A stretch of DNA of 64,000 nucleotides from an uncultured Alphaproteobacteria bacterium (GCA_934246625.1 CAKQHZ010000001.1:232338-296337), one strand, 5' to 3'. Counted from the stretch's first letter, positions 13,682 to 38,354 are shown. The notes: generated by a model from the letters alone, not told the origin. Translations and numbers: made by a program.

Positions 13682-13698
13682 TTTATTTCTCCTTATTC

Positions 13699-14157: not shown

Positions 14158-14195
14158 ATTAAATCCAGTCGATTTTTGCTATTTTTAATATACAC

Positions 14196-14405: not shown

Positions 14406-14993
14406 ATGATTTATGGATATACCAGAGTTTCAACTGAACTACAAAACACCGAAAATCAAAAACACGAAATTCAAACCTTTGTAAAGTCGCAGAAAATCAA
14501 GATTGACAAGTGGGTGGATGAAATAATTTCTTCCCGAAAATCATTAAAAGAAAGGCAACTGGGTAAACTTTTAAAACATCTTAAAAAAGGGGATATTTTG
14601 ATTGCTTCGGAACTTTCAAGACTTGGCAGAAATTTGCTTGAAGTTATGGGAATTTTGCAAAGCTGTTTGGAAAAAGATTGCCAAATATGGACCTTAAAAG
14701 AAAACTATAAACTTGGTGCAGATATACAGTCAAAAGTCCTTGCATTTGCGTTTTCGTTGGCTGCTGAAATTGAGCGACAACTTATTTCTCAACGGACAAG
14801 GGAGTCATTAAAAAGGATAAAAGATGAAGGTAAACATCTTGGCCGGCCATTTGGATTTAGTTATAAAAAACTTGATGCAAAGAAAGGTAAAATCCAAGAA
14901 TTACTTTCAAAAGATATTTCCAAAGCCGAAATTGCAAGGCTTCTAGATTGTTCTTGGATAACACTTCACAGGTATATACGAAAGTCATTGTAA
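14406..14993 (+). CDS. Serine recombinase (resolvase/invertase family)
   Basis: N-terminal MIYGYTRVSTELQN with the catalytic Ser, SELSRLGRN, and a C-terminal HTH. Confidence 0.8.
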   Translation: MIYGYTRVSTELQNTENQKHEIQTFVKSQKIKIDKWVDEIISSRKSLKERQLGKLLKHLKKGDILIASELSRLGRNLLEVMGILQSCLEKDCQIWTLKENYKLGADIQSKVLAFAFSLAAEIERQLISQRTRESLKRIKDEGKHLGRPFGFSYKKLDAKKGKIQELLSKDISKAEIARLLDCSWITLHRYIRKSL

Positions 14994-15309: not shown

Positions 15310-17901
15310 CTAATATTTCGATAATACTGTAATTATCTCCTGTTTTATTTTCTGTGGAAAATCGTAATTTATCCAATCTGGATTGTTATTAAACCAAGAC
15401 AAGCATTGTTCCTGAGTTAAGTTATCACTTGTCATGTATTCAAATATATAGGATACTGCCGTACGAGAAAAACCTAAATATAACAATGATAACTGTGTTT
15501 TTTGACTAACACCGAATTCCAAGAAAACTGAAAAATCTTGAATTTCTTGAACTAAATCATTTCTATTAATACTCGTCAAATAATATTTCAATACATCTGA
15601 ATAGCATTTAAGATATTTTGGGGCTGTATATCTTGCAAATTTTTCTATTAATTCCATTGTTTCCCTGATCAATGTATTTGTATTTAGTGAATCAGAATAA
15701 TTCCTTGATTTTATATAGTTAATTCTGTTTGTTATAATTCTCTTTAATGGATACCCTCTCATCCAATTCACTACTATAATTGAGCAACTATATAACGAAC
15801 GACTTGAGTAATAAATTCGAGTTAAATGATTATTGATTCTTTGAAACGCTTTGTTATAGATACCAACAGCATTTTCACTAGCAGGATCGCATAGTAATAG
15901 CTCCTCAATATTCTTTTTTTTATTTTTATTGCGTTCTATAAAATAATTATACAGTCTAATTATATGCATAGAATTTATGCCTGGATTATTTTCTATAATA
16001 TCCAAAGGGAAGGGTAAATTTTGATAAATATTTGCAATCTCGCTTTCTATCTCATCAATGTTAGGAAAGAAATTACTCCATTTATATTGTTTTATTGTCT
16101 TATATCTTCCATATTGTGCCACTAAATATGACACAAACTGATCAAATAAATGATTAGGCTGTGCGTTTATATCTTGACATTTTATATAGTTTAAAAAACT
16201 TGTTGTCTTAAACTCTTCATTATCGATAAATTTCCTAATGTAGTATTTCTGTCTTTTCTTTGGAGCTTGTCCATCCGTCCAGATATTTTTATCGTTGGGA
16301 TCAATACAGATTATATTACCTTGAAATTCAGTTCCCCATCGTCCTGCTCGTCCCGCTAAATTCCAAAAATCAGCATTTGACATTAACTGTTGTTTCCCTT
16401 TTTTAGGGCCTCGCATAAATATACTTCTACACGACAAATTAACACCTTCAACCAATGTAGAGGTACAAACTAAATGTGTAATAATATTTTCATTGAATAA
16501 TCGTTCTATTTCTGCTTTTATTAAAATAGGCATATTTCCATAATGAAAAGCTACACCACGTTTTAGAACTTTACATAGAACATATTCTTCATGGATAGTT
16601 TTCTTACATAAATCAATTAATGAATTTAGTGCTTCATCGTTTTTATTGTTATCTTCACCCAACAAATCACATATTAACTGAGCAATCTTTTCAGCATCTG
16701 CAGCACCATTTACATATATAATATTACCTTTAGCAATTATATTTTGATTATGGGTTAATGCATCGACCATATAAGCAATTCTTTTTTGATCAGAATTGGG
16801 GGATGATTTAAGAGAAATATTATTCAAACAATATTCTTCATTACCACTTATCAGCTTCAAAACCCATTTCTTAGATGAATGAGGCTGTTGTTCTACCCAC
16901 AGAATGTTCTGATTAACCGTCAGTTCTTCACCTTTGATACAATGTGTTTGTTTTTTCTCATCTATATCTTCAAGTAATCGTTCTGGATTAGCAGTAAATG
17001 GGCTAACAAAAACTAATTTAAGATTACTATTTTCAAATATTCCCCATTCTATAATTTGTTGCAATAAAAGTCCACGATTATCATCACCTATCTTATAGGC
17101 TTCGTCAATAATCATTGCAAATATATTTAATTCAAAATTCAACGAAGAAAGTAATAGATAAAAACGTTCTTGCGTAAATACGAAAATATTTGATTTATTC
17201 CAATCTAAAATATCATTTATTGGCATAGATGTCACATTGACTTTTTCTTCCAGAGCATTATCGTTTATTAGTTTTTTAAAATCTTCTTCTAATTCATATA
17301 TTAAAGCTCGCGTAGGAACAATATATACTATATTTACTTTGTTATTTTCTTTTATTTGATCGATAATCCATTGTTTTACTATAAATGTTTTACCTGCAGC
17401 TGTTGGAGCTGTAACACTCAAATATTTGTAACATTCCAAACTTCTCCAAAAATTATTTTGAAATTTATTCGCAAATATTTTCTTTCCGTTGTTTGTGTCT
17501 ATAAGATTTTCTTTTCTACATCTTGTCCAAAACATTTTAGATGAAAAATTTAGACGGTTTTCTATATGTCCTTCTATAAGGTTTCTTTTTTCTGCTAAAT
17601 TAATGGCCGGAATGTTAGATAAAGAATTAAGAATAATGGTCGCCATATCTCTATGTTCAGGTGATACAGCACAAGATATACATGTCTGGGTAATTCTTAA
17701 AACCTTATCAAAATTAGAAACATCTTTTGCTAAAATACTTGCACATAGTAGCAAATATCCCCAATCTATATCTGCTTGCGTATCTTTTTCCTTAATAAAT
17801 ATGCCATCGAACTGTTCTTCAACAGATAAAAGGAGAACCTTTAAATACATATTACTAAAGTATTGGTTATTATTTATCCATTCCAATAAAGTTTCTTGCA
17901 T
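15310..17901 (-). CDS. Ski2-like SF2 helicase, candidate Hachiman HamB
   Basis: Helicase motifs are TAPTAAGKT (I), PTRAL (Ia), IIDEAYK (II), SPFTA (III), FHYGNMP, TSTLVEGVNL (V) and QLMSNADFWNLAGRAGR (VI), after a roughly 160-aa N-terminal domain. The start is 3 bp from the upstream DUF1837-like gene. Confidence 0.5.
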   Translation of the reverse strand: MQETLLEWINNNQYFSNMYLKVLLLSVEEQFDGIFIKEKDTQADIDWGYLLLCASILAKDVSNFDKVLRITQTCISCAVSPEHRDMATIILNSLSNIPAINLAEKRNLIEGHIENRLNFSSKMFWTRCRKENLIDTNNGKKIFANKFQNNFWRSLECYKYLSVTAPTAAGKTFIVKQWIIDQIKENNKVNIVYIVPTRALIYELEEDFKKLINDNALEEKVNVTSMPINDILDWNKSNIFVFTQERFYLLLSSLNFELNIFAMIIDEAYKIGDDNRGLLLQQIIEWGIFENSNLKLVFVSPFTANPERLLEDIDEKKQTHCIKGEELTVNQNILWVEQQPHSSKKWVLKLISGNEEYCLNNISLKSSPNSDQKRIAYMVDALTHNQNIIAKGNIIYVNGAADAEKIAQLICDLLGEDNNKNDEALNSLIDLCKKTIHEEYVLCKVLKRGVAFHYGNMPILIKAEIERLFNENIITHLVCTSTLVEGVNLSCRSIFMRGPKKGKQQLMSNADFWNLAGRAGRWGTEFQGNIICIDPNDKNIWTDGQAPKKRQKYYIRKFIDNEEFKTTSFLNYIKCQDINAQPNHLFDQFVSYLVAQYGRYKTIKQYKWSNFFPNIDEIESEIANIYQNLPFPLDIIENNPGINSMHIIRLYNYFIERNKNKKKNIEELLLCDPASENAVGIYNKAFQRINNHLTRIYYSSRSLYSCSIIVVNWMRGYPLKRIITNRINYIKSRNYSDSLNTNTLIRETMELIEKFARYTAPKYLKCYSDVLKYYLTSINRNDLVQEIQDFSVFLEFGVSQKTQLSLLYLGFSRTAVSYIFEYMTSDNLTQEQCLSWFNNNPDWINYDFPQKIKQEIITVLSKY

Positions 17902-17904
17902 GTT

Positions 17905-18873
17905 TTATCCTTTATCTGGAAAAATTCCCAAACATTTATGAAATTCTGTTCTTAATTCATTTACAGATTTAAAAGGAATACAGAAGAAATGTATAACAAA
18001 AGAGTCTAATCCTTTCATTTTTAGTTTATTTTGAATAACTATATTCAATTTCGGTATTTCTTTTCGAATTTTCTTTTCTACATCTGAAATAGTTTCTTGA
18101 TTGGGAGATTGAGGATAATAATTATCTTGTTCAAAGCCAACAAAAGCTATGGCTCTTATTTCGAGTTTATTAAATTTAGGACTATCTCTATCTAAATACT
18201 CCTTAAGTACATCTTCCATTTTTTTATCATTAAGATCTATAAACTGCTTTAATAGAATAAAATCCCTATTATCTGCGGACAAGATACCACCATTCGCATT
18301 AAGTAAGGTATTTAAGCTATTTAAGCAATCTTCAACTGCGGTAGGAAAATCTTTATAAACTTTTGATTCTCCCCAATGTAAAGCTAAATTATTATCCTCT
18401 GTTAATCCAAGATATACTCCATCTGCACCATGGAAGTACATATTATGATTTGTTTTTAAATTCATTTTACATATCACTTGGGGAATTTTTAAAAATTTTT
18501 CTGCTAATACAAATAAAATTAGTTCACCTAATTCACCTGACTTAACACTATCGACAAATGTTTCCTGTGCTTCTTGCCGTAATTTCATCATATTTCTGGT
18601 TGTTGAATTTTGGTTATCCCTATTTTTTGCTTCAACAATACGACTTCTTGGAATTACATAATCAATTATATCACAAACCACACAATCCACAAAATCTTTT
18701 GTTCGATCCCGTCCGTTGCCATCTAATTCAATACAATGCCAATAAGATATTGTTTCTGTTTCATCTATCTTTTTTTCTTTTTCTACAGTGTGTAAGAAAG
18801 CTTCATAGCTATTGAAATCACCCCTAGCTAATCTATTTAATATACTCAATAAAAAATCTTCGTTCTCAGACAT
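17905..18873 (-). CDS. PD-(D/E)xK-like protein, candidate Hachiman HamA (DUF1837-like)
   Basis: The E ... D ... ExK pattern (GELGE, HGADGV, HWGESKVY) sits directly upstream of, and translationally coupled to, the helicase. Confidence 0.45.
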   Translation of the reverse strand: MSENEDFLLSILNRLARGDFNSYEAFLHTVEKEKKIDETETISYWHCIELDGNGRDRTKDFVDCVVCDIIDYVIPRSRIVEAKNRDNQNSTTRNMMKLRQEAQETFVDSVKSGELGELILFVLAEKFLKIPQVICKMNLKTNHNMYFHGADGVYLGLTEDNNLALHWGESKVYKDFPTAVEDCLNSLNTLLNANGGILSADNRDFILLKQFIDLNDKKMEDVLKEYLDRDSPKFNKLEIRAIAFVGFEQDNYYPQSPNQETISDVEKKIRKEIPKLNIVIQNKLKMKGLDSFVIHFFCIPFKSVNELRTEFHKCLGIFPDKG

Positions 18874-20939: not shown

Positions 20940-21050
20940 TTTTAAGGAGTTAAAATTGTTAACTATTTGTTTTTGCTAGTATTTTGCAAAAGATAAAATT
21001 CTTTAAATTGATTAAAGTGAGAAATAAAAAATCAGTAAAATCAAAGATTT

Positions 21051-21103
21051 TTTAGTGGTGCCGGCACACGGACTCGAACCGCGGACCTGATGATTACAAA
21101 TCA
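21051..21103 (-). repeat. Partial copy of the tRNA-Thr 3' end plus 6 flanking nt: direct repeat/att site marking the distal island end
   Basis: The 53-bp stretch ttttagtggtgccggcacacggactcgaaccgcggacctgatgattacaaatca is identical to 38274-38326. The sequences diverge immediately after it. Confidence 0.7.
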
Positions 21104-21349
21104 TAAGGGCTATTATTTTACAATTTTTGATTGTAATTTATTTTATTGTATAATCAATATGTTAAATCGTTTTATGAAAATTTTAAGATTTACCAAAATT
21201 GATGTATTTTGACCTTTTTTGATAAAAAATACGGCAATAATTCGGCAATGAAAATTGAATAAAAATCCTTGATTTTAGCAATGTATATACTTATAATTAA
21301 ATTATGATTCGGCAATAAATGAAACAATTAAGGAACAAAGGGTTAAAAA

Positions 21350-22378
21350 ATGGAAAATAAAGGAAATATTATAATATACAAAGATGAAAATGGCACAGTT
21401 AAGGCTAATGCTTTATTTGCCAATGAAACTATATGGCTTACACAAAAAGGAATGAGTGAACTTTTTGATATAGACCCTTCTGGTATAAGCAAACATATAC
21501 AAAATATATTTAATGACGGAGAATTGGCAGAAAACACGACTCTTGCAAAATTTGCAACTGTCGTAAATCGAGGTTTTCGTGGTCCAATAGAAGAGGAACT
21601 TGATTACTATAATCTTGATATGATTATTGCTGTCGGATATAGAGTAAATTCCAAAAAAGCAACTGCTTTTCGTATTTGGGCGACAAATGTTTTAAAAGAA
21701 TTTATTACAAAAGGCTTTATCCTTGATGATGAACGCTTAAAAAATGGAAATATGTTCGGTAAAGATTATTTTAGAGAATTATTAGAACGTATTCGTGATA
21801 TTAGGATTAGTGAAAAAAGACTATATCAACAATTAAAAGATATTTACGCCCTTTCCGCTGATTATACAAAAGATAATAAAGATGCCTTACGATTTTTTGC
21901 AACAGTCCAAAATAAAGTGCATTTTGCAATTACTGGAAAAACTGCTCCTGAAATTATATATGAAAGAGCAGACTCTGAAAAATCTAATATGGGACTTACA
22001 TCTTGGAAAAATTCACCAAACGGAAAAATCTCCAAATCAGATATTGGTATTGCTAAAAATTATCTTAATGATTCCGAATTACAAGATTTAAGGGGAATAA
22101 TAAATATGTTCCTTGATTATGCAGAAATGCAAACAAGAAATAACAAACTAATTTATATGAAAGATTGGGAAAAACGTCTTGACGACTTTATAAAATTTAA
22201 TGAAAAGCAAGTTTTATCAAATGCCGGAAAGATATCTCGTATGACAGCACTAAGAAAAGCCTTTTCTGAATATGATAAATATAAAGAATTATTAAGAATA
22301 GAAGAAAAGGAACAAGCTGAAAAAGAAATAGAAACAGATATAAAAGAATTAAATGAAATTTTAGTGAAGAATAATTAG
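21350..22378 (+). CDS. RhuM-family protein (virulence/DNA-binding family common on islands)
   Basis: N-terminal IIIYKDENGTVKANALFANETIWLTQKGMSELF pattern, and the family-typical length. Confidence 0.55.
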   Translation: MENKGNIIIYKDENGTVKANALFANETIWLTQKGMSELFDIDPSGISKHIQNIFNDGELAENTTLAKFATVVNRGFRGPIEEELDYYNLDMIIAVGYRVNSKKATAFRIWATNVLKEFITKGFILDDERLKNGNMFGKDYFRELLERIRDIRISEKRLYQQLKDIYALSADYTKDNKDALRFFATVQNKVHFAITGKTAPEIIYERADSEKSNMGLTSWKNSPNGKISKSDIGIAKNYLNDSELQDLRGIINMFLDYAEMQTRNNKLIYMKDWEKRLDDFIKFNEKQVLSNAGKISRMTALRKAFSEYDKYKELLRIEEKEQAEKEIETDIKELNEILVKNN

Positions 22379-22435: not shown

Positions 22436-23596
22436 ATGTCAAAACAATTTAACTTCACCAAAAAAGATATTGATGCATTGCCAGTGCCAAACAAAGGTTT
22501 TGCCACCTACTCTGACACAACGGAAAAAGGGTTGAAACTCTACATTACTCCAACAAGGACAAAGACTTTCTTTATTCGTAAATTTATAAATGGGCGGGAT
22601 GAACGGCTTATCATAGGTCCGTATCCGGATTTGACTATTTCACAGGCGAGGGAGAAAGCAAGAATTTTAAAGGGGACTATTGCAAACGGCATCAACCCAG
22701 CGGAGGAGAAAAGAAAACTTCGCCGTGATATGACCGTTGCGGAATTTTTTGATTACTACATTACAAATTACTCCACAAAGAAAAAGCGCCCTAATTCCAT
22801 CAGGTCGGAAAAAACTTTGTATAAAAATCATATTGCAGATTTTCTCGGGTATAAAAAGATGACCTTGGTGCAAAAGGCGGACATTGAACGGATTTTAAAG
22901 CCCTTGGTAAATCAAGGCAACTTTGCCACAGCAAACAGGATACTTGCCCTGTTTTCTGGTATGTATAACAGAGCGATTGAATGGGGTTATCCCGATGAAA
23001 ATCCGACAAAGGGGATAAAAAAGCAACGCGAAAAATCACGGGAGAGATTTTTGCAACCTGATGAATTGCCACGATTTTTTGAGATGTTAAACTCTGTTAA
23101 AAATGAGAATTTTAAAAACTATATATTGCTTTCACTTTTTACGGGGCAACGAAAAAATAATGTGCTTTCAATGAAATGGGAGCAGATAGATTTGTCGCTT
23201 GGGATTTGGTTTATACCACACACGAAAAATGGAGAAAGTTTGAATTGTGCGTTGAGTGATGAGGCAATAAAACTTCTCTCTGATATAAAACAAAATACAA
23301 CCTCCGAGTGGGTTTTGCCAAGTGAAACTTCCTCCAGCGGGCATTATGAAGAGCCGAAACGGGCTTGGAGAACCTTGCTTAAAAATGCAGGGATTGAAAA
23401 TTTACATCTTCATGATTTAAGGCGAACCCTTGGAAGCTATCAGGCGATAGGCGGTTCAAGTTTACAAATAATTGGTCAATCTTTGGGACATAAATCCTTG
23501 CAATCTACACAAATATACGCCCGCCTTATCAAAGCTCCCGTCCGCCAAAGCACAAACATGGCCGTCGCGAAAATTTTGGAGTATGCGAAGAGGTAG
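22436..23596 (+). CDS. int: Tyrosine integrase, P4-like (N-terminal arm-binding DUF4102-type domain)
   Basis: KGLKLYITPTRTKTFFIRKF arm domain. Catalytic motifs are HDLRRT and LGHKSLQSTQIYARL (the Tyr nucleophile). Confidence 0.9.
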   Translation: MSKQFNFTKKDIDALPVPNKGFATYSDTTEKGLKLYITPTRTKTFFIRKFINGRDERLIIGPYPDLTISQAREKARILKGTIANGINPAEEKRKLRRDMTVAEFFDYYITNYSTKKKRPNSIRSEKTLYKNHIADFLGYKKMTLVQKADIERILKPLVNQGNFATANRILALFSGMYNRAIEWGYPDENPTKGIKKQREKSRERFLQPDELPRFFEMLNSVKNENFKNYILLSLFTGQRKNNVLSMKWEQIDLSLGIWFIPHTKNGESLNCALSDEAIKLLSDIKQNTTSEWVLPSETSSSGHYEEPKRAWRTLLKNAGIENLHLHDLRRTLGSYQAIGGSSLQIIGQSLGHKSLQSTQIYARLIKAPVRQSTNMAVAKILEYAKR

Positions 23597-25148: not shown

Positions 25149-26615
25149 ATGTTTTATGCAAATTGGATATTTTTCTTAGGTGATAAAGAAAATAAATATA
25201 AAATTTTTGTATATGGACTTTCTTTACCAACAAATAAAAAAGAAAAATATGTTTCTAAATTACAAAAACTTTGTAAAATTGATAATTATAATTTATATAT
25301 GTTATGTGCAATTACAGAGATAAATAATATTATACAAGATAATACTATAAATTTATCAATTATTTCTGATGAATTACCTCAAATAAAATATTTATGTTCA
25401 AAAAAATTTATTCAACCTGCTGACCCAGGAGAGGCATTGTCATATATTAAAAGTCCTATAAATAGTTTAACAAATATTACTAGCTACTATACTAAAGAAA
25501 TTTTAACAAAAGAGTTTTTAAACGAAGATTTAATTATTCTCTTGAAGCAATTAAATGATATATTAAATCAAAGGTTTTATGGAGAATATTCAAAAAGATT
25601 AGGTTGCTTTGAAATAGGAGAAATACAAACTTGGGCAGAAGATATTATTCCATTTTATTTTAAATTTGATAAAAATAATAATGACTATATTTTTCATAAA
25701 AGAAATGATTTTAAAGAAGATCTTTATATTGTTTTAAAATGTTATTTATCAGATAATGAGAAAATATATGAAAATATAAAATTTGTTTCTAAAACAGATA
25801 ATGATATTCAATTCAATGGAATTAAAGAGCATTGGATATATGAAGCTTCTATATATAATAATACAGGAAATTTAATACATGAGGAAAAATATTTCTATAC
25901 AAAACGTATTTGGTTAAATATATGTCCTAAACCTTCAAATAAAATAAAAATAGAAGATGTATATTCTGAAAAAGATGCTAATTTAAGGACTGTAGATTCT
26001 GCTATATTTACTACTCAATCTATAGTAAATAATCCGTATATTGATATTAAATATGATGAAATAGAAAAATTACATAAAAATATAGAACAGAGAATAAACA
26101 ATTATAAAATCTCTGAAAAAGAAGGAGCATTCTTTTCAGAAAAGGATAAATTAAATTCTATAATAAATTATCTTAATTCTATTAACTTAAAAAATGATAA
26201 AATTATCATTATTGATCCTTATATTGATATAGATTCTTTATCATTAGGGTTGAGATTACATTCAAGCGAATTATTGGTGATTTCTTCAAAAAATCCGCCA
26301 CATATGCCAAAATCCAGTATCAAGCAAAATATACAAAATATACTTAAAGTGAAAAAAGAAAATAATATAAACAGTATTAAAGTTCATTTTATTGAAAAAC
26401 GATTTCATGATAGATTTATTATATTTTTTAATAATCATGAAAAAGATATTTATAGTATATCAAATAGTGTTAACTCCTTAAAAACAAATCCTAATATATT
26501 AATTACAAAATTAAATGGAAAAGTTAGATTTGATGTAGAAAAATATCTTGATACATTAATAGAATTATGTAAACCAGAAAATACAGTTGAAGAAATTTTA
26601 AAAAATGATAAATAA
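25149..26615 (+). CDS. Hypothetical protein (unknown cargo gene A)
   Basis: AT-rich ORF. The C-terminal region KIIIIDPYIDIDSLSLGLRLHSS...FHDRFIIF suggests a possible nucleotide-binding or nuclease-like fold. No confident family was found. Confidence 0.3.
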   Translation: MFYANWIFFLGDKENKYKIFVYGLSLPTNKKEKYVSKLQKLCKIDNYNLYMLCAITEINNIIQDNTINLSIISDELPQIKYLCSKKFIQPADPGEALSYIKSPINSLTNITSYYTKEILTKEFLNEDLIILLKQLNDILNQRFYGEYSKRLGCFEIGEIQTWAEDIIPFYFKFDKNNNDYIFHKRNDFKEDLYIVLKCYLSDNEKIYENIKFVSKTDNDIQFNGIKEHWIYEASIYNNTGNLIHEEKYFYTKRIWLNICPKPSNKIKIEDVYSEKDANLRTVDSAIFTTQSIVNNPYIDIKYDEIEKLHKNIEQRINNYKISEKEGAFFSEKDKLNSIINYLNSINLKNDKIIIIDPYIDIDSLSLGLRLHSSELLVISSKNPPHMPKSSIKQNIQNILKVKKENNINSIKVHFIEKRFHDRFIIFFNNHEKDIYSISNSVNSLKTNPNILITKLNGKVRFDVEKYLDTLIELCKPENTVEEILKNDK

Positions 26616-27858
26616 AAAGTTTTGTTTTAAGAAATTAACTGATACTAAACCAGAAGTTGTATTGACTAATTTAATAAAAAAATTTAACTCTAGGAGAAAT
26701 ATTAAACTTATAAAATATGTTGAAGCATTATCATTATTATCTCATATAAGAAATGAAAAAATTTTTAAGTATCAATTAATAAAAATATTGAAAACAAAAT
26801 TACTTAATAATATTTATAATAAATTAGAGGATTTACCTAGTACTTTTGATGAGATTAATATAGATATATCAGAAATTGATAGTTTAATTAACTCAGAATT
26901 ATCATATAAATTAATAGACAATATTGCAAAAACTGAAATTAATATAAATAAAAATTATAAATATTATGGAATCCGTAACTTATTTCAATATTTATTGGAA
27001 ATAGATTTACAAAATTTTGAAAAATTTATATCAGAAACAAATAGAGATGATTTTAAAATAATATTTGTAAGTATTCTTTTATCTATATTTCCAATATTAG
27101 AAGATATATATAAAAATTGGGATAAAGCTACCTTAGGTATTTTACAGGCATATTATGCAAATATATACTACAATAATAATCCTCACTATTGGCAATTTAA
27201 TTTAAATAAAAATAAAGAGATTAATACAATATTAAAAACAAACTTACCTAATAAAAGTAAATTTATAATATATTTGAAGTATATTATTCAGAAATATCAC
27301 GGTAAAAAATTCACTAATTTATTAAAAGATAGTGAAATTGACAATTTAGTAAATAACCTATTATCTATAGATTATAACTTCACTTGTGAAGAACTATTTG
27401 CTCAATCTCCAGTTTTTTATTCTTCAATATATTTGATAATTATAGATAATGTTTCTGATAAAAAGAAACAATACGAATTTGCTTCTTTCTTATATGAAAA
27501 ACTCATAAATTGTATTGAAAAAAATAATTCAGAATATTATGTTCAATACATAGAATATGCAAATATATTGGGTGATTTAACTATAATTATGAATAATTTT
27601 GATAAACTAGATAAATTATTTAATCAAAATTATAAACAATTATTATTTCCATATAGTTTTTGTAAAAGACAAGATTGGAATGAAAAGATATTATTATTAC
27701 TTTATATACTAATATCAATAAAAATAGTATATGATGGAAATGATATTTCCAACTACTTACATAAATTTAAAGAAGTAAAGGGCAAGCACTTGACAATGCT
27801 AGAAAAAATAAATCCTGATATCTATAATCAGATAATCAAACAATTAGACAATAATTAA
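26605..27858 (+). CDS. Hypothetical protein (unknown cargo gene B, overlapping A by 11 bp)
   Basis: ORF only. It is helical and repeat-like, and translationally coupled to gene A. Confidence 0.3.
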   Translation: MINKKFCFKKLTDTKPEVVLTNLIKKFNSRRNIKLIKYVEALSLLSHIRNEKIFKYQLIKILKTKLLNNIYNKLEDLPSTFDEINIDISEIDSLINSELSYKLIDNIAKTEININKNYKYYGIRNLFQYLLEIDLQNFEKFISETNRDDFKIIFVSILLSIFPILEDIYKNWDKATLGILQAYYANIYYNNNPHYWQFNLNKNKEINTILKTNLPNKSKFIIYLKYIIQKYHGKKFTNLLKDSEIDNLVNNLLSIDYNFTCEELFAQSPVFYSSIYLIIIDNVSDKKKQYEFASFLYEKLINCIEKNNSEYYVQYIEYANILGDLTIIMNNFDKLDKLFNQNYKQLLFPYSFCKRQDWNEKILLLLYILISIKIVYDGNDISNYLHKFKEVKGKHLTMLEKINPDIYNQIIKQLDNN

Positions 27859-27940: not shown

Positions 27941-29749
27941 TTATGATTCTTTAATCTTATTCAACCAAAATAAATACCATTTATCCTGAATATGTTCTTT
28001 AATTTTATTCTCAATACTAAGAGTATTCAATTTGTTATTTTCTAAACAAAAATTATATAGAATTAAAAATTTAGATAAAGGATAACCCTTTTTATGTTTA
28101 TTTTTAGGAAATAAATATTCTTTTAAATAATGTATATTTTTACATGATCTAATTTCATCCATATTATAAATTACAGAAGATGCATCATTATAGTCACGTT
28201 GTAAAATGAAACTACGTAAATCATTGTATTCATCTTTTAAGTCTGGTAATAAACGAAAAAGAATAGATGAAACTTGTCTAGTTAAAAATGAATTTTTGAT
28301 CCAAAGATTTCGATATTTATTTATATGTTCATAGATAGATTTTGGTGTTTCATATTTAGCAGCAAACCATAAGTAACTATAAAAATTAAATTCTTTATCC
28401 TTAATAGTTAATGATTTTAAATATTTAGATATATAATTTATATTTTCAATATCCACTCTTGAATATCCAATATTCCAATCTATAATTAAAGCAACCAATA
28501 AAAATAACGTTATATCATCATATCTTGTAATATTTATCAATGATTGAAAAATTTTATATGTTTTTTTAGTATATCCTAATTTATATAAATATTGACATAC
28601 ATTAGTTCTCAGATCTGAATATTCTTCAAAAATTCTTGGTAAATATTTTAAGATTTTAGTAAAATTGTTATTTCCAGCAATAGTCAAAAATCTTTTTAAA
28701 ACCTTATCAAAATTTTTATATTGTTTATTCTTGTTCCAATGTCTTCTAAAATATTTCATAAACTCTTTTTCTTTTGGGGGATTTTTGTCAAATATATTTA
28801 ATTGAATATTTTCGTCAAATAAAAAATGTCTTTTTGCCTCAGAAGCATCAAGAATCTTTGTTTTTGACATATTAAGAGACAATCCTCTACTTTTTAAAAC
28901 ATCAGATATATTGCTTAAAATTGACTTAGCCTCCCTTATATCATCAATACCAATAACAATATCATCCATCCATCTTACAAAATTTTCATTTATTTGATAT
29001 TTTAATAAGTAATCAATTTCAAAAAGAAAAGAATGTGCTAATAGTCTAATTGCTTCTAAATTAATTGTAGGCATTCCAATTGATTGATTGGGTAAATAAT
29101 CTGGTTTCCATGATAAATCTTCAATTATATTAAAAATTAAATCTAATAAAACTTCGTCACATTTGATATACCCAGAAACTACACTTCTTAACTCATTTAA
29201 CCGTATACTATCAAAATAATTTGATAAATCTGTTATAATAATATATTTTTTTGTTTTTGTAAATTGAAGAATTTCATTTTGATATATTTTCCATTGTTCA
29301 AACCAATCATTATAATCCGTATTTATTTCATGAGGAAGTTTAATAGAAGAACTTTTATCTCTAGAATAATAAGCATGATTTGAAGGTGCCTGTTTTTCTA
29401 AATCATTACAAAAAGGTTCTATAAGAGCTTGTAAAATAAGAGTGTCACTAGGAGATAAAATAATCATATGGCGACAAATGCCAAATTTTTTCTCTAATGT
29501 ATATATAATTGGTATTTGCGATTTATATTGACCAGAAATAATTTGTTCATTAATTTTACTTGTATTATAATCTATTCTTCTATGAAAATCATAAAAATCA
29601 TGTAAATCAAGAATACTCATACTCCTTACTTGACTCTTAACTTTATGTTTCCATAATGTTTTTAAAGTATCCTTTTTAAATGGATTTTCTAACTGTTTTT
29701 GCCTTTTTTTAAATCTTAACGTTATAGGTTTAGACATTTTAAAACTCAT
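27941..29749 (-). CDS. Reverse transcriptase, stand-alone Abi/defence-type (AbiK/Abi-P2/UG-like), with an RT domain plus a roughly 300-aa helical C-terminal extension
   Basis: RT motifs are FGICRHMIILSPSDTLILQALIEP (1/2), IITDLSNYFDSI (A), GMPTINLEAIRLLAHSF (B'), FVRWMDDIVIG (C, with MDD replacing YxDD) and SLNMSKTKIL (D). There is no maturase, endonuclease or intron-like domain. Confidence 0.8.
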   Translation of the reverse strand: MSFKMSKPITLRFKKRQKQLENPFKKDTLKTLWKHKVKSQVRSMSILDLHDFYDFHRRIDYNTSKINEQIISGQYKSQIPIIYTLEKKFGICRHMIILSPSDTLILQALIEPFCNDLEKQAPSNHAYYSRDKSSSIKLPHEINTDYNDWFEQWKIYQNEILQFTKTKKYIIITDLSNYFDSIRLNELRSVVSGYIKCDEVLLDLIFNIIEDLSWKPDYLPNQSIGMPTINLEAIRLLAHSFLFEIDYLLKYQINENFVRWMDDIVIGIDDIREAKSILSNISDVLKSRGLSLNMSKTKILDASEAKRHFLFDENIQLNIFDKNPPKEKEFMKYFRRHWNKNKQYKNFDKVLKRFLTIAGNNNFTKILKYLPRIFEEYSDLRTNVCQYLYKLGYTKKTYKIFQSLINITRYDDITLFLLVALIIDWNIGYSRVDIENINYISKYLKSLTIKDKEFNFYSYLWFAAKYETPKSIYEHINKYRNLWIKNSFLTRQVSSILFRLLPDLKDEYNDLRSFILQRDYNDASSVIYNMDEIRSCKNIHYLKEYLFPKNKHKKGYPLSKFLILYNFCLENNKLNTLSIENKIKEHIQDKWYLFWLNKIKES

Positions 29750-29819
29750 TAAATATTATTTTGCAAAAATATATTATCTTTATAAGTCTTTTTCAATAAA
29801 AAATATGAATTATTATCTT

Positions 29820-32800
29820 TTATCCAAACAATCTATCCAGTTCTTCTTCTAAAATACCTTCCTTAACAAGAGGAAGTGTATCAACTTGTTTCAAATTATG
29901 TTTTTGAATGAAATTTTCATTATCGAAACCAAGGATATATGATATAGCAATACGATAAATTATTTCTGTCGGTGCTAATCCATAAACTTGCTTTTCAAAA
30001 ATATGCTTTAATCTATCTTTTGAATCAGGATAAATCTTTATCAATTTAGGATTATTATATAATCGTTTTACAATTTCAGTGATATATAATCCTGATTTCA
30101 TATATAAATCAATAAATGTTTTATCTGGATCTGTAAAGCAATCTGGACATTCTTTTTCTAAATTATCTACCATTTCTTTTACTACTTTTTTAGGCGTAAA
30201 GATTTGGTTTGTTTTTTGTGGTGGAATATAATCAAAAATATCCTCAGTGTTATTTTCATCAAAATAATTGGAAAGTTTAGTTTTCAAATTTAAGAATTCC
30301 TTAATGGAATCATTGAAAACAATAGGATCAAATAGATGTCCATCAAAATGCTCCATTTTTCCTGTTTTTTCATCTTTATAATCTCCACCATCACGTAAAA
30401 ACTTAAATTCAGCAAGAGAAATACTTGTAACTTCTTTAAATACTTCATCTGGTATAATTGTATCAAAGTTTTCTAATGTTGTGTTTTCATTACCATAAGC
30501 CATTAAAAATGAAGGTATTGTTCTTGAAAAACCTCTTAAATAGTCTCGAACTGAATCTTCTATGGCTGTTTTTTCTTTTTGCCTTTTATCTGTTTCTACT
30601 CTTTCAATAATTGTATTTCCTGTATTTTGAATAAGTTCAGGAAGTTTATTCTTCAATTCTGAAATAAATGTTGTTTTGTTTTCAGCAACTTTCAAATCAT
30701 ATAGTTCATTAATTTTATCTTTTTCAAAATCAGATGCTGTTTTTAATTCTTTTTTTCGTTCTAATTCTGTCTGATTTTGTAAGATTTTATAATTACCATA
30801 TTCTTTATCAAAAACCTGATTTGTTGTATTTAATATTGTTTGAGTAATTTTCTTTAAAGAGCTGGTTGTTACAGCATTTTTGTAGTTTGTTTTTACTGTA
30901 TCAACAAAAGTTTCTTCAACTTTAGCTTTAAATGTATCTTTTAATTCTTTTAATTTCTCATCATCTTGTTCAGGTTGGTTATTTTGCAATTCATTTACAG
31001 TTTCAACTAAATCTTTATTAATACTTTCATAAATCTTATCTCCAAATATTTCATTCGCTTGACCAATAATAAAGTTTTGTGAAAGTTCTACTTCTCCATC
31101 TTCATTTAAAGATAAATCATCTTTTGTATTTTGATTAATTGGTAAAGGTTCTTTTGTCTTTTCAAATTTTTTTATAATATCAACAACTTCTTGTGGTGCA
31201 TTGAATATGTTTCCAATATTCTGGAATAAGAAATTACTCATAAAACCACGTTGAACGACTTCTTGTGCATGGATTTTACGAGGAATAGATAATACCTGTT
31301 CAGCCTTAAGAAGTATCATTTCACCATCCTCATCTTCACCATAAACAGGGAAAAAGTTTAAAAGTTCTCTAACATTTTGTTTCCTTGTATCACTATCACC
31401 TTGTCCACTTGTTGTATTTATACTTAAATCGTTAGCAAATTTTTCAACAATTTCCAAAGTTCTTGCTGGATCAAAATCAAATACATAAGCATTTTCTTTT
31501 CTAAAGAATTGTCTATCTTTATGGAATATACAAGGATTTTGCGACCTGAAAGCTGTTTGCATATATAATGCTGGACTTTTAACATTACCAAGCATTAAAA
31601 CTGCTGTCCATTCAGGAATTGTAATTCCAGTAGTTAATTGTCCTACAGATAGAGTAATTGTCTTTTCATAATTCTTTATGCCATTAACAACTTTATTAAA
31701 TGCATTTTCACGTTCTTCGTCTTCATTAAGTTTACCATCCCCAGCGGCAACAATAATTTCATAATTTTTAAATATAGGGTGATTTTTTAATTTTTTTGCC
31801 AAAGCTTTAACACTACCAACTCTATCTAAAAACCAGAATGTATGATTAAGTTCATCTCTTAATTCTTGAGTTGAAAATGGAAATTTAGTTTTTATAGTTA
31901 ATGCATCCAAAAATTTATCAACGGCTTCATCATACTTAAAACTTCCATTTTCATTTGTTGAAAAGAATTCATTCAAATCAAAAGCATATTCTCTAATATC
32001 ATCATCAGATAAATTGCATCCCTGTTTTACCTTGTCTTCAATAATATCTGACATCTTATATGTATAAAGATTTAATTGAGGTAAGTTTTGATAAGGATTT
32101 TCTTCTTCGTTTGATGTATCCCAATTTTTTTTTGCATTTTGTTCATCAGCATAAGTCCAATTAAATATAGCTTTCTCTTCAAATTTATTATTTGCTAAAG
32201 CTTTAAATGGCGTTCCAGATAAATGAAGTGTAAATTTTCTTTTTATTTGATCAAAGGCAATGTCAGTATGATATGTATCAACACCTTCATGTGCTTCATC
32301 AATTACTAATAAATCCCAGTCTAAATCTTTAATCTCTTTAAGTTTATCATATTTTCCACCAAAGTAGATTGACCCTTTTAAATCTTGTAATGATACAAAT
32401 TCAATACATCCTTTATGATTTCCATCGTTAAGTTTATTTAAGTATTCTTCTCTTGATAGAACATATTCTTTACTTTTCAAAGTACTAACTTGACTAACAA
32501 AATAATATCCTGAATTGGTACCTAAAAACCTTTCATAATCAGCATACCAAGAATTAGCAATAGCTGGTCTATTCGTTACAATTAAAACTTTTTTTGCATT
32601 TATCTGTTTGCATAAGTCATAAGTTGATAATGTTTTACCAAATCTAGGTTTTGCATTCCATAAAAATTCTGGTTCATCATCTTTATGACTTTCAAAATAT
32701 TCTTTTGTTTGAGAAACAGCATTAAATTGCTCATTTCTAAGTTTGTATTCTATTACAGGTTTTGTTTCTAAAATTCCTCTGTTTTCTTTAAATTCATAAA

Positions 32801-33119
32801 ATTTTTCTTTTGAATCTTTTGGGGATATTTTAAACCATTCTGTATCCGGTTTTCTTTCAATATTGTTTTTCTTAAGGTAAGCGTGAAAATCTGTATCATG
32901 GAAAACCTCGCCAGAACCATCCTCATATATAGCATTAGATTTCCATTCCAATACAAATTTTACATCTGCAGTTTGAGTTTGCTGTTTTATACGAGTTTCG
33001 ACATCTTGTTCTGTAAAACCAATCTTTGTCCATCCATCATGTTCTTTAATCTCAGGAGTTGTATATGCATAACACATAGGGACAATTTTCTTTAATGTTT
33101 TAATATTTAGTTTTACCAT
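29820..33119 (-). CDS. Multidomain protein: N-terminal T5orf172 (GIY-YIG-like) domain, SF2 helicase (ResIII-type, DEAH), long linker, and a C-terminal degenerate MTase N-lobe
   Basis: CYAYTTPEIKEHDGWTKIGFT...VETRIKQ is T5orf172-like. Helicase motifs are Walker A NAKPRFGKT, LLVIDEAHEG and LSGTPF. The C-terminus carries IFTPKKVVKEMV (motif X), FIDLYMKSGLYI (degenerate motif I) and QVYGLAPTEIIYRIA (motif II), with no NPPY. The start is taken at the internal MVKLNIK, 1 nt after the upstream gene's stop. The track start at 33155 overlaps the upstream gene. Confidence 0.7.
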   Translation of the reverse strand: MVKLNIKTLKKIVPMCYAYTTPEIKEHDGWTKIGFTEQDVETRIKQQTQTADVKFVLEWKSNAIYEDGSGEVFHDTDFHAYLKKNNIERKPDTEWFKISPKDSKEKFYEFKENRGILETKPVIEYKLRNEQFNAVSQTKEYFESHKDDEPEFLWNAKPRFGKTLSTYDLCKQINAKKVLIVTNRPAIANSWYADYERFLGTNSGYYFVSQVSTLKSKEYVLSREEYLNKLNDGNHKGCIEFVSLQDLKGSIYFGGKYDKLKEIKDLDWDLLVIDEAHEGVDTYHTDIAFDQIKRKFTLHLSGTPFKALANNKFEEKAIFNWTYADEQNAKKNWDTSNEEENPYQNLPQLNLYTYKMSDIIEDKVKQGCNLSDDDIREYAFDLNEFFSTNENGSFKYDEAVDKFLDALTIKTKFPFSTQELRDELNHTFWFLDRVGSVKALAKKLKNHPIFKNYEIIVAAGDGKLNEDEERENAFNKVVNGIKNYEKTITLSVGQLTTGITIPEWTAVLMLGNVKSPALYMQTAFRSQNPCIFHKDRQFFRKENAYVFDFDPARTLEIVEKFANDLSINTTSGQGDSDTRKQNVRELLNFFPVYGEDEDGEMILLKAEQVLSIPRKIHAQEVVQRGFMSNFLFQNIGNIFNAPQEVVDIIKKFEKTKEPLPINQNTKDDLSLNEDGEVELSQNFIIGQANEIFGDKIYESINKDLVETVNELQNNQPEQDDEKLKELKDTFKAKVEETFVDTVKTNYKNAVTTSSLKKITQTILNTTNQVFDKEYGNYKILQNQTELERKKELKTASDFEKDKINELYDLKVAENKTTFISELKNKLPELIQNTGNTIIERVETDKRQKEKTAIEDSVRDYLRGFSRTIPSFLMAYGNENTTLENFDTIIPDEVFKEVTSISLAEFKFLRDGGDYKDEKTGKMEHFDGHLFDPIVFNDSIKEFLNLKTKLSNYFDENNTEDIFDYIPPQKTNQIFTPKKVVKEMVDNLEKECPDCFTDPDKTFIDLYMKSGLYITEIVKRLYNNPKLIKIYPDSKDRLKHIFEKQVYGLAPTEIIYRIAISYILGFDNENFIQKHNLKQVDTLPLVKEGILEEELDRLFG

Positions 33120-33120
33120 A

Positions 33121-33501
33121 TTACACCATCTCCTTTTTATCCAATTGAATTCCATTTACTTTTGTTTTTAATTGTTCAATTAGTTTATATTTATGTTTTT
33201 TGATATAATATTTACGTAAAAATAAAGAAATAATTTCTATAAATAATCCAATAAAATAAATATACACGTTATCTATATATAAAGTTTCAAAAATATTAGA
33301 AATGGTAAAAGATAAGATACCAACACATTTTAAATATCTTTCTTTTAAATATTCTTCTATCAAATTTGTATTACAATCTAAATATGTTGAACTTTTTGCT
33401 AAAATATGCTCATCTGAATCTAAATTACATATTATTAATATAATACCAAATATTTGCAAAATAAGTTTTAATACAGTAGATAAACTTAAATAAATAAACA
33501 T
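33121..33501 (-). CDS. Small membrane protein (3 predicted TM), translationally coupled to the helicase gene
   Basis: Hydrophobic segments LILQIFGIILIICNL, VGILSFTISNIF and IYFIGLFIEIISLF. The TAA stop lies 1 nt before the downstream ATG. Confidence 0.35.
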   Translation of the reverse strand: MFIYLSLSTVLKLILQIFGIILIICNLDSDEHILAKSSTYLDCNTNLIEEYLKERYLKCVGILSFTISNIFETLYIDNVYIYFIGLFIEIISLFLRKYYIKKHKYKLIEQLKTKVNGIQLDKKEMV

Positions 33502-33516
33502 TTTTACTCATCTCCT

Positions 33517-34506
33517 TTAGACAGTTTTTTGTTCAATATACTTTATTTCTTCTAATGTAAGATTATATTTTTCATATAAATCTTTGTTGTTCCATTTCTT
33601 TGAAAAATCTTGGATAGGTACAAATTTATAAACATTTCTTGCTGCATTTTGTGATTTTTTTATTTGAGATATTAAGTATTTATATAGATTAGTATTCATA
33701 TATGAAATAACATTTTCACATATTTCTTTACTATCAAATGGTCCCACAACTAAATATGTTTCATTACAAGCTGTTCCTGGTGCTCCATAGAATGGTAATC
33801 CATTAAATTTTGCAGAAATTTCTCCTGCTTTTGATACATAAACTTTATGCTGATCAATCCATTCTTTTTTAGAAATAATTTTATTTCTATCTATATATGC
33901 AAACTTTTCATCTGAACGATCTCGAGAAAATCTATAAATTTTAATGGAATTTTTTTCTTTTTTATTTGAAAAATAATTTTTATAATTTCCAACTTTTCCA
34001 TTAGCAAAAGGAGAATATGTTGAAACTAAATCCATAAATGATGCAAAATCTTTAGAATATATTCCAACTTTAGTTACTATTTCATCAGCTTTTGGATCTC
34101 TTATAAAAAATTCTGTTCCATGTTCAGCCATGTTCCTAATATCTGTTTTCACTATATCGCCATCTATATAGGTATATTTTGTATGTGCTGTAACATTTTT
34201 ATCATATATAAAGTATGATACACCACCAGCTAAGGAAATATTTGTTTGAAAAACCTTATTTGCATCAGTATAATCAACCATAGATGAAATATGATTATTT
34301 TTTAACATAAATTTTCTAAATTCATCTAAACCAGTTCCACCTGTCATCCATAAACTTGGTGTAATCATAGAAACATAATTAGCTTTTAAATTAATTGCAC
34401 TTTGTACAAAATGATGATAAACAGGATTTGCTTGAGAAATAGATCCTGAATTATTTGCAACTAATTCCTGATAAGGTGGGTTTCCAATTATAACATCAAA
34501 CTTCAT
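33517..34506 (-). CDS. N6-adenine DNA methyltransferase catalytic and target-recognition half (gamma-class, Eco57I/TaqI-like)
   Basis: The protein begins at motif IV: MKFDVIIGNPPYQ. It lacks the AdoMet-binding motifs X and I, which are found in the upstream ORF. Confidence 0.75.
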   Translation of the reverse strand: MKFDVIIGNPPYQELVANNSGSISQANPVYHHFVQSAINLKANYVSMITPSLWMTGGTGLDEFRKFMLKNNHISSMVDYTDANKVFQTNISLAGGVSYFIYDKNVTAHTKYTYIDGDIVKTDIRNMAEHGTEFFIRDPKADEIVTKVGIYSKDFASFMDLVSTYSPFANGKVGNYKNYFSNKKEKNSIKIYRFSRDRSDEKFAYIDRNKIISKKEWIDQHKVYVSKAGEISAKFNGLPFYGAPGTACNETYLVVGPFDSKEICENVISYMNTNLYKYLISQIKKSQNAARNVYKFVPIQDFSKKWNNKDLYEKYNLTLEEIKYIEQKTV

Positions 34507-35438
34507 TTTTTAGCTCCTTTCAAATCTTTGAAATAGATAGTTTTTCCACTACGCCAATCTTTGATTTTGCAAAGTATTGGTGTCGAAAGTTGTATATCTG
34601 TATTAAATAAATCTGGTTGAAAATAATCTTCTTCTGTTGTTGCAAATGGTACAGTATCGTTTAAACCATCCATCTGCCATATATTCCATGAAATAATATT
34701 TGCAATTTGCTCAATCTGTATAAGACTTGGTTCTTTATGATATTTATTCTGATAGTAATCAATAAAAGTCCAAAGCAAATTTTCCCTTGCCAATAATAAA
34801 TTATCGCCTTGGTATTCATAACCATAGGTACTTTCAAATGCTCGCTTAACCCAATTAAACCAATCTGTATCATTATTTGTGTTTTCGTTAACGACACGAA
34901 GTTTTCTATCTAAAATACCTATACGTTTTATGATTGGTAAGATTTCACCAGTTGTGGTATCATATCTTGAAACTAAATATGGTGCCTCACCACAAGTAAT
35001 TTCAAGTCTTCTTGAATCGACATAACTTTTCCAATCCTTGTCGTTAAAATCTATAAATCTTTCATTTGGTATCCAATCTTGATTTTGTTGGATATTGAAT
35101 ACATTTTTGTAACCAAACCATTCTTCATCACAAAGATTATTCATTTCATTACAAATCCAAGATGGAGTGAAAACTTCTGCTGATTTATGGGTACGATTTT
35201 TTTGTTCTTCTTTGTTTTTGGCAATTCTTGGCTGAATAATAGAGGTATTCTTATCAATAATTAATTCAGGTAAGATTTCTTTTTCTTTTGAATAATCATC
35301 ACCATATTTTAGATATTCATCGCATGCCCAATGGATATATCTCCCTGTTGTCTTATCCCTTAGTAATATCTTTAAAAGATAAGGACTTAAGACATGTATA
35401 TATTGCTCAAGAATATCTATGTTACTTTCAATAACCAT
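34503..35438 (-). CDS. N6-adenine MTase N-terminal (AdoMet-binding) half; a split MTase or a frameshift-separated gene
   Basis: AEVFTPSWICNEM is motif X-like and LEITCGEAPYL is motif I-like. The ORF overlaps the NPPY ORF by ATGA. Confidence 0.5.
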   Translation of the reverse strand: MVIESNIDILEQYIHVLSPYLLKILLRDKTTGRYIHWACDEYLKYGDDYSKEKEILPELIIDKNTSIIQPRIAKNKEEQKNRTHKSAEVFTPSWICNEMNNLCDEEWFGYKNVFNIQQNQDWIPNERFIDFNDKDWKSYVDSRRLEITCGEAPYLVSRYDTTTGEILPIIKRIGILDRKLRVVNENTNNDTDWFNWVKRAFESTYGYEYQGDNLLLARENLLWTFIDYYQNKYHKEPSLIQIEQIANIISWNIWQMDGLNDTVPFATTEEDYFQPDLFNTDIQLSTPILCKIKDWRSGKTIYFKDLKGAKK

Positions 35439-35554: not shown

Positions 35555-36163
35555 TTATATATGCTTTTGTAAATGATTTTTTATATATTTATTGAGTGTT
35601 GGTTTAGTAATTTTTAGTTTTTTTGCAACAATATATTTGGGTAATCCTAATCTTAAAAGACTAATGATTTTATCTTTTTTCTCTTCAAGTTTATTGTGCT
35701 TATTTTTACTTCCCTTCGGTCTTCCAATTGTGGAACCTTCTAAAAGTCTGCGTTTCAATCCCTCTATAGTCCTTTGACTTATCAAATCTCTTTCCATCTC
35801 TGCAAATGCACTTAAGATTGCTATCATCATCTTTCCCATAGGGGTGTTATCAATCGACATTCCTTGCTTTACAAGATAACAATTCACACCTTTTTTCACA
35901 AGCAACTGACAAGTATTTATAACATCACTTGTTGATCTTCCAAGTCTAGATAGTTCTGATGTTATAAGCACGTCTCCTTTATCCAATATTTTTAGTAAGG
36001 TTCCCAGTTTACGTTTCTTTGCAAGAATTGTGCCACTGACACCTTCATCAATATATTCTTTATCTATTTTCCAATTCATTCTGTTTACAAAATCTATTAC
36101 TCCAAGTTTTTGACTTTCATAGTTTTGCAATTCTGTAGATACTCTGTAATATGCATATATCAA
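35555..36163 (-). CDS. Serine recombinase (resolvase/invertase), paralogue of the 14406-14993 gene
   Basis: MIYAYYRVSTELQN, SELSRLGRS, and a C-terminal HTH. Confidence 0.8.
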   Translation of the reverse strand: MIYAYYRVSTELQNYESQKLGVIDFVNRMNWKIDKEYIDEGVSGTILAKKRKLGTLLKILDKGDVLITSELSRLGRSTSDVINTCQLLVKKGVNCYLVKQGMSIDNTPMGKMMIAILSAFAEMERDLISQRTIEGLKRRLLEGSTIGRPKGSKNKHNKLEEKKDKIISLLRLGLPKYIVAKKLKITKPTLNKYIKNHLQKHI

Positions 36164-38071: not shown

Positions 38072-38278
38072 AATATACCCTTCTATTTTAAAATAGATAC
38101 AGCTACTATTCTACTTCTTATATCCAGCTCTATTTTAAATATAATTCCACAATAATCAAATCTTTTTCCCCTGCAAATTTCTGCAAAAATTCGGCAATGA
38201 TTCGGCAATGGAAATTTTGCACGCAAAACTCATCGTTCTTACTAACTTCATAACTCATTGATTTTTGGATGGTTTTAG

Positions 38279-38354
<76 letters not shown>

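Follow-up and report, generated by a model that had tools for sequence, protein, structure and literature searches.

Does a run of five co-oriented genes that joins a reverse transcriptase (RT) to the parts of a restriction enzyme encode one defence system or several? The genes in question lie on the minus strand at positions 27941-35438 of a 64,000-nucleotide stretch of DNA, here called the window, from an uncultured Alphaproteobacteria bacterium (CAKQHZ010000001.1:232338-296337), and encode, in gene order, two methyltransferase (MTase) halves termed MTaseN and MTaseC, a 126-aa hydrophobic open reading frame (ORF), a nuclease-helicase protein (hereafter the helicase) and the RT. An original prediction, made from the sequence alone, proposed that they form a new RT-coupled restriction-like system. 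The genes and their domains were recovered as predicted, the ORFs agreeing with the Pfam and PADLOC calls (Table 1), and the conclusion drawn from them here is a different one. With a probability of roughly 85%, two independent defence modules stand side by side on an integrase-borne tRNA-Thr island. Module A (29820-35438) is best described, from its domains and motifs, as a Type ISP-like restriction-modification (R-M) enzyme divided among three polypeptides, and module B (27941-29749) is a stand-alone UG13a RT.

The RT had been regarded as unclassified. Judged by its profile match, it is a full-length UG13a member of the UG/Abi (abortive infection) RTs, residues 10-598 aligning with positions 3-588 of the 589-position PADLOC RT_UG13a profile (2.3e-178, 592.8 bits), followed at a distance by the next-best PADLOC group, UG21 (8e-28). 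Partnerships with methylases and helicases are on record for other UG groups, for instance UG35, a methylase-RT with a UvrD helicase (PMC9226505), which would favour a coupled system, but the RT matches UG35 at just 3e-10. The protein has a Pfam RVT_1 domain (4.5e-10), and 15 homologues show no change in its motif A TDLSNY.D (D174) or motif C RWMDD. A placement in Class 1 is suggested by the PADLOC groups that score nearest, UG21, Drt8/UG7, UG13b, UG20 and UG19, and by analogy with other Class 1 UG/Abi RTs module B is probably a single-gene defence of the abortive-infection type. UG13a was defined by Mestre et al. 2022, where its defence prediction was 'inconclusive' (PMC9226505); the RT in the window is a full-length member of this group, likewise lacks a conserved partner gene and shows no structural difference from it. 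When 80 UG13a loci were taken from species-representative genomes and their flanking ORFs clustered, no neighbour family was conserved across them, the best shared family being present in six. A search with Rfam over 22-39 kb of the window returned a tRNA alone and no noncoding RNA beside the RT, and the intergenic DNA that flanks the gene amounts to merely 70-82 nt. Since there is no conserved neighbour, no Rfam RNA and little non-coding DNA, the RT is described here as a single-gene module. Its three closest relatives (67-70% identity) stand alone, two of them adjoining serine-recombinase genes, and cassette-type genes were found near none of the three (0/3).

The second line of evidence comes from the relatives of module A. 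The helicase and MTaseN each have at least 8000 homologue clusters. Across 98 related helicase loci drawn from metagenomes and IMG/VR, the order MTaseN-MTaseC-helicase is kept wherever upstream DNA is present (MTaseN in 86/98, MTaseC in 97/98), there is no conserved fourth gene, and a UG13a-like RT is found in none (0/98). DNA homology of the window with the related loci L187 and L004 stops at the helicase stop codon, and that with L187 begins at the MTaseN ATG. What follows this boundary differs among three near-identical cassettes: the UG13a RT in the window, a convergent Dsr1-like gene in L004 (L004:5636-8920), whose cassette is 95% identical, and a convergent type VI retron in L187 and L188 (L187:6465-7686; RT_VI 1.6e-70, HTH_VI 5.9e-27), whose cassettes are at least 90% identical with the 126-aa ORF included. 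Because cassettes that are 90-95% identical carry a Dsr1-like gene or a retron VI in the slot of the RT, the RT is, on this comparison of loci, a neighbour filling a variable downstream slot and not a component of the cassette; the slot itself looks like a cassette-exchange hotspot. In an RT-coupled system the RT, helicase and MTase genes would recur together; they do so in 1 of the 80 UG13a loci, where the MTase and helicase are distant relatives of another build. Elsewhere, the RT and the cassette are thus essentially never found together, which is the outcome that the original prediction had itself equated with accidental juxtaposition, and the neighbourhood analysis largely refutes the RT-coupled reading.

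Within module A, the MTase is divided into separate ORFs, as had been predicted, and the division falls between motif III and the NPPY motif. MTaseN is the first half of a gamma-class N6-adenine DNA methyltransferase; it has no Pfam match and aligns over all 327 positions of a PADLOC 'MTase_II' model (3e-102). MTaseC, whose N-terminus reads MKFDVIIGNPPYQ, contains a Pfam Eco57I domain at residues 73-171 (8e-24), covers a separate 348-position PADLOC MTase_II model, PDLC03375, end to end (2e-46), and alone also matches positions 1011-1324 of PADLOC REase_MTase_IIG (PDLC03626). The two halves are separate ORFs in 40 relatives and a single fused ORF in 40 others, with the joint always between motif III and NPPY; the split loci (40/80 relatives) show short overlaps at this same III/IV boundary. 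A broken or pseudogenised MTase was considered and rejected, given the recurrent III/IV split, the full-length PADLOC model that each half has of its own and the invariant motifs, and a single gene broken by a frameshift is at odds with 40 split relatives that share one boundary. The split is accordingly described here, from the pattern among relatives, as a recurrent natural state that is neither decay nor frameshift. The further suggestion that the locus might be a decaying composite of two systems holds as regards the composite and fails as regards the decay, since every catalytic motif is preserved unchanged among the homologues and split and fused forms are equally frequent.

MTaseC is also the part of the cassette that varies most. 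At an identity of 55-66% for the helicase and 42-65% for MTaseN, that of MTaseC in the same loci is no more than 24-36%, and its conservation is confined to the first and last 30 aa. Because MTaseC is hypervariable against a conserved MTaseN and helicase, it displays the pattern of an exchangeable specificity cassette, and on these identities it is taken to be one. In the fused MTase ORFs (L089-L186), the codon aligned to the MTaseC start is ATG in 32/37 loci and is preceded by a Shine-Dalgarno-like purine-rich motif in 92%; internal initiation may therefore still produce free MTaseC from fused genes.

The helicase has the Pfam domains T5orf172 (residues 29-117; 2e-4, as compared with 2e-7 in the relative P0455), ResIII (137-317) and Helicase_C, and ends in an MTase N-lobe that stops exactly before motif IV and is without motifs IV-VIII. 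This lobe had been called degenerate on account of having motifs X, I and II and no NPPY. The composition is as described, but complete single-chain relatives have identical motifs X, I (F.DLY.KSG.Y) and II, and the lobe is therefore truncated and not degenerate. By its motifs, the C-terminus of the helicase is a genuine MTase N-lobe, and it is the best-conserved segment of the protein (71-77% identity). Used as a query, residues 860-1111 gave 914 matches in a set of 1.84 billion representative proteins; 27 of these matches are at least 1290 aa long and are referred to here as the single-chain relatives. In 26 of these 27, the part homologous to the whole helicase gives way, after 0-10 residues, to a part homologous to MTaseC that begins at residue 1 of the latter, and BLASTP alignments of the helicase with the 27 extend in most cases up to query residue 1110 or 1111. 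For instance, the junction of P0427 reads '...LEERFGEEMKFDVIIGNPPYQ', its equivalent in the window being '...LDRLFG' (stop) plus 'MKFDVIIGNPPYQ'. The single-chain relatives (1300-1530 aa) hold T5orf172, ResIII and a complete Eco57I domain, and match PADLOC REase_MTase_IIG, although the helicase itself gave no match to PDLC03626 at E below 0.01; MTaseN is contained in none of them. It is the fission at the MTaseC start, taken together with these single-chain relatives, that argues for reading module A as a Type ISP-like enzyme spread over three polypeptides.

Against Protein Data Bank (PDB) chains, neither the helicase nor MTaseN nor an N-lobe profile gave a significant sequence match, and Pfam searches of 20 isolated N-lobes gave merely two weak N6_Mtase matches (E 0.06). 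MTaseN and the helicase N-lobe were also considered as recent paralogues, an idea that was rejected when hhalign and BLASTP found no similarity between them beyond the FTP motif (Prob 1.3%). One relative of the helicase, P0378 (1381 aa), carries another domain after the N-lobe in place of the MTase C-lobe, which matches PADLOC PDC-S61 (3e-97) and, more weakly, RTasPDDEXK, an RT-associated PD-(D/E)xK effector model (1e-12).

How does this cassette compare with described systems? The likeness to Type ISP and Type IIG enzymes that was noted at the outset is upheld by the single-chain homologues, the PADLOC REase_MTase_IIG model that they match having been built from REBASE 'Type IIG' entries. Proteins that combine T5orf172, superfamily 2 (SF2) helicase, Eco57I-type MTase and target-recognition domain (TRD) in one chain, such as P0455, P0427 and P0435, are homologous across the whole of the helicase and MTaseC and have the same domain order, N-lobe motifs X, I and II, and NPPY start of the C-lobe. 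In contrast to these, the window has a break in the chain between motifs III and IV, a C-lobe/TRD gene placed upstream and not downstream, and an extra N-lobe protein, MTaseN. Homology to the 'Type IIG' T5orf172-helicase-MTase enzymes runs over nuclease, motor and N-lobe, whereas restriction and modification domains, which 'Type IIG' enzymes unite in one chain, are here on different chains, the helicase protein stopping before motif IV. A Type ISP enzyme is one polypeptide, and its nuclease is of the Mrr/PD-(D/E)xK kind (PMC3553950, PMC4666363), whereas the cassette consists of three ORFs and has T5orf172 (GIY-YIG-like) as its N-terminal nuclease; sequence similarity to PDB chains was not detectable. 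The Type ISP order of SF2 motor, gamma-class N6-adenine MTase and TRD is reproduced across the helicase and MTaseC, with a putative assembly in trans.

The closest described system, likened by domains alone, is DnmA-YeeB-YeeC, which has the same parts list, namely an MmeI-like MTase, an SF2 helicase and a T5orf172 protein, and forms a conserved operon on defence islands; its MTase is an MmeI/Eco57I-like N6-adenine enzyme with a non-palindromic site (PMC9973331). In that system, T5orf172 and the helicase are separate proteins encoded downstream of an unsplit MTase, whereas in the window T5orf172 is fused N-terminally to the helicase, the MTase is split and the helicase has an extra N-lobe. Type III R-M systems differ as well, in that Res has a C-terminal PD-(D/E)xK nuclease and no MTase lobe, and the TRD lies inside Mod, an MTase of the beta class. 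Proteins with T5orf172 plus ResIII have already been counted among R-M-associated families, and a literature search found no paper describing the split three-protein form. Both modules thus belong to known kinds, and the cassette is uncharacterised yet already present in databases.

Based on these relationships, we hypothesize that MTaseN and MTaseC rebuild one gamma-class N6-adenine methyltransferase, which would mark host DNA, while the 1099-aa protein would contribute a GIY-YIG-type (T5orf172) nuclease and an SF2 double-stranded-DNA motor. The N-lobe of the motor protein would pair with MTaseC or with the M complex and in this way borrow its sequence recognition, and at an unmethylated site ATP-driven translocation would be followed by cleavage by the N-terminal nuclease. 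What the N-lobe does within such a scheme can be explained in two ways. The first, to which we give not far short of an even chance, is that it does not complement MTaseC and is only a docking or S-adenosylmethionine (SAM)-sensing domain acting on a complete MTaseN-MTaseC, as HsdR binds M2S or Res binds Mod2. This fits the fusion of MTaseN and MTaseC into one ORF in half of the relatives, and also the equal conservation of the N-lobe in fused (68.7%) and split (70.0%) loci; the same figures led to the rejection of the idea that the N-lobe is needed just when MTaseC is free. Less easily reconciled with docking are the end of the N-lobe exactly at the III/IV boundary, with the motifs of complete single-chain enzymes, and the start codon and Shine-Dalgarno-like motif retained in fused ORFs, which leave room for a free MTaseC.

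A more tentative and rather doubtful proposal is that MTaseC is a shared subunit that completes either of two sequence-unrelated N-lobes, that of MTaseN or that of the helicase. Together with MTaseN it would form the protective methyltransferase, and together with the helicase N-lobe it would rebuild a single-chain Type ISP-like restriction enzyme. Sharing fits the exact point of fission and the standing of the N-lobe as the most conserved part of the helicase, and it fits the conserved first 30 aa of MTaseC and the initiation signals kept in fused ORFs. If true, one swappable gene would set the specificity of both modification and restriction by split-Rossmann-fold complementation.

Module A might alternatively be an orphan or epigenetic methyltransferase that carries inert helicase-nuclease baggage, as has been proposed for DnmA-YeeB-YeeC of Bacillus subtilis, a cluster that gave no restriction of plasmids or phages and no phage protection in that host (PMC9973331). 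We regard this as improbable. The nuclease, motor and MTase motifs are all intact and invariant family-wide, and a huge conserved family with a hypervariable specificity cassette bears the signature of diversifying selection on R-M specificity; moreover, the Vibrio crassostreae homologues affected phage sensitivity (PMC9973331), and the cassette is located on a mobile island beside Hachiman and other defence genes.

The B. subtilis result nevertheless also counts against the preferred reading of two independent defence modules, and several further points weigh on the same side. For module A, the restriction, the methylation and the recognition site are all predicted from sequence, and the structure model of the full-length helicase is poor (predicted local distance difference test score, pLDDT, 60.7). 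For the independence of the modules, the RT is co-oriented with the helicase and lies 70-82 nt downstream of it with no terminator between, and transcription may read through from one into the other. Some RT-based system adjoins two of the three near-identical cassettes (UG13a in the window, retron VI in L187). The last ~45 nt of the helicase gene (29820-29865) are divergent (~60% identity) in a gene that is ~95% identical to those of L004 and L187, which suggests a recombination breakpoint inside its 3' end, and the RT-bearing DNA may have arrived by recombination within the helicase allele. Finally, the sole co-occurrence in the 80 UG13a loci, L012, places a distant MTase and T5orf172-helicase pair 1.7 kb from the RT; the MTase of this pair is unsplit and 486 aa long, its helicase has 821 aa (31% identity) and no N-lobe, and the defence island around it also holds SIR2 and GIY-YIG genes. 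Co-orientation across a short gap that lacks a terminator, the L012 neighbourhood and an arrangement kept unchanged in at least 15 contigs, all of them of the same island and organism, are what would speak for a single system in which the helicase-nuclease/MTase machinery is fed by the product or activity of the RT, or itself triggers the RT, but set against the absence of the RT from all 98 related cassette loci and of the cassette from its closest relatives, the lack of a conserved UG13a partner, the cassette boundary at the helicase stop codon and the other occupants of the slot, this is very improbable indeed.

The junctions between the five genes are short or overlapping, and terminators are absent from them, both as predicted. 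In gene order the gaps are -4, 15, 1 and 70-82 nt, that is, a 4-nt overlap of MTaseN and MTaseC, 15 nt from MTaseC to the 126-aa ORF, 1 nt from this ORF to the helicase if the latter starts at 33119 (M13), and 70 nt from the helicase to the RT, or 82 nt with the database RT start (M5). Start M13 of the helicase is the choice of all homologues and of the database gene call, the ORF itself reaching 33155 (29820-33155). A terminator scan found three weak sites as against 1.6 +/- 1.5 in shuffles, none of them intergenic. The spacer between helicase and RT contains a promoter-like TTGAAA-17-TATATT (29796-29768) with 10/12 matches, and this region has no more such matches than shuffles do. The 126-aa ORF lies within a ~385-bp lineage-specific insertion in which the ribosome-binding context of the helicase start, AGGAGATG..ATG, occurs a second time. 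The ORF is found in L187/L188 (L187:2781-3161) and annotated as a gene in NCBI/ENA, is missing from L004 and from 98/98 helicase loci, and has no Pfam, PHROG or PADLOC match. From this distribution, the 126-aa membrane ORF is a lineage-specific insertion that stands outside the conserved cassette.

Table 1. Features of the island, the two modules and their surroundings; positions are those of the window unless a locus is named.
Feature	Position	Strand	Description
Second resolvase	14406-14993		
HamB-like DEAD helicase (Hachiman)	15310-17901	minus	
HamA (Hachiman)	17905-18873	minus	Pfam HamA 6e-55
Left attachment (att) copy	21050-21103		Perfect 54-nt direct repeat; left end of the island
RhuM gene	21350-22378		Just inside left att copy
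P4-type tyrosine integrase	22436-23596		Just inside left att copy
UG13a reverse transcriptase	27941-29749	minus	602 aa (database 598 aa from 29737); PADLOC RT_UG13a
Helicase-RT spacer	29750-29819	minus	Right-hand limit of conserved R-M cassette; promoter-like site
Restriction subunit (helicase)	29820-33119	minus	1099 aa from M13; T5orf172, SF2 motor, variable coiled-coil linker, MTase N-lobe
126-aa hydrophobic ORF	33121-33501	minus	Own AAGGAG ribosome-binding site
MTaseC	33517-34506	minus	329 aa; catalytic half (NPPY, motifs IV-VIII) and target-recognition region
MTaseN	34503-35438	minus	311 aa; N-terminal helical domain and SAM-binding half, motifs X, I, II, III
Serine recombinase/invertase (Resolvase, Mpi-like)	35555-36163	minus	Upstream of cassette; Pfam Resolvase 4e-35
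Right att copy	38273-38326		Perfect 54-nt direct repeat inside tRNA-Thr; right end of the island
tRNA-Thr	38279-38354	minus	ARAGORN, Rfam tRNA
Recurrent serine recombinases	L085:4114-7321; L087:667-1506; window 35555-36163; L001:7170-7763 and 13629-14237		

That the genes sit on a tRNA-integrated island was part of the original prediction, and this is the case. The island measures 17.2 kb, is delimited at tRNA-Thr by a perfect 54-nt direct repeat that corresponds to the 3' part of the tRNA, and encloses a P4-type integrase and a RhuM gene. An identical 17-kb island is present in at least 15 contigs, all of them the same element and organism from human-gut samples. Two contigs with the identical island diverge beyond its integrase-side end (L190:17960-19797 versus L189:17817-19347), where one has a C5 DNA methylase and an HNH gene and the other unrelated ORFs; hence, content beside the same tRNA site is variable, possibly in the form of tandem islands. 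A motif like AAAATTCGGCAATGA occurs at 21226-21251 and 38175-38211, ~100-170 nt inside both island ends and in tandem at the tRNA end, and these copies are candidate integrase arm-type binding sites. Convergent with the RT are two overlapping plus-strand genes (488 and 417 aa; 25149-27858), the first of which scores 81.3 bits against the NCBIfam VPA1262 N-terminal domain model, above the cut-off of 80, while the second has no match in any library searched; the two are a possible further defence pair of the island. A Hachiman system (15310-18873) lies just beyond the left att copy and outside the island, and in L001 Hachiman and a resolvase also adjoin that locus's copy of the MTase/helicase cassette.

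Serine recombinase genes, either of the small invertase type or large, repeatedly adjoin both UG13a RTs and MTase/helicase cassettes (Table 1). The one upstream of MTaseN matches the NCBIfam Mpi family at 3e-50, a score under the curated cut-off, and recombinases that resemble it flank the cassette in L001. The recurrent recombinases may mobilise the RT and cassette modules. Inverted repeats that could serve an invertase-driven switch were sought around the resolvase and MTase genes, and only imperfect AT-rich matches were found.

The arrangement in the window therefore represents the juxtaposition typical of defence islands and not a new RT-coupled restriction system. For UG13a, the locus supplies a defence-island context for a group that was left 'inconclusive' in its founding survey. 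For module A, the comparison provides an anatomical account of an abundant and experimentally untouched R-M family, with at least 8000 protein clusters and common in human-gut metagenomes, which would constitute a Type ISP-like enzyme with a GIY-YIG-type nuclease that exists in single-chain, two-gene and three-gene forms. Its split-Rossmann arrangement offers the testable idea that restriction and modification may share one exchangeable specificity cassette.

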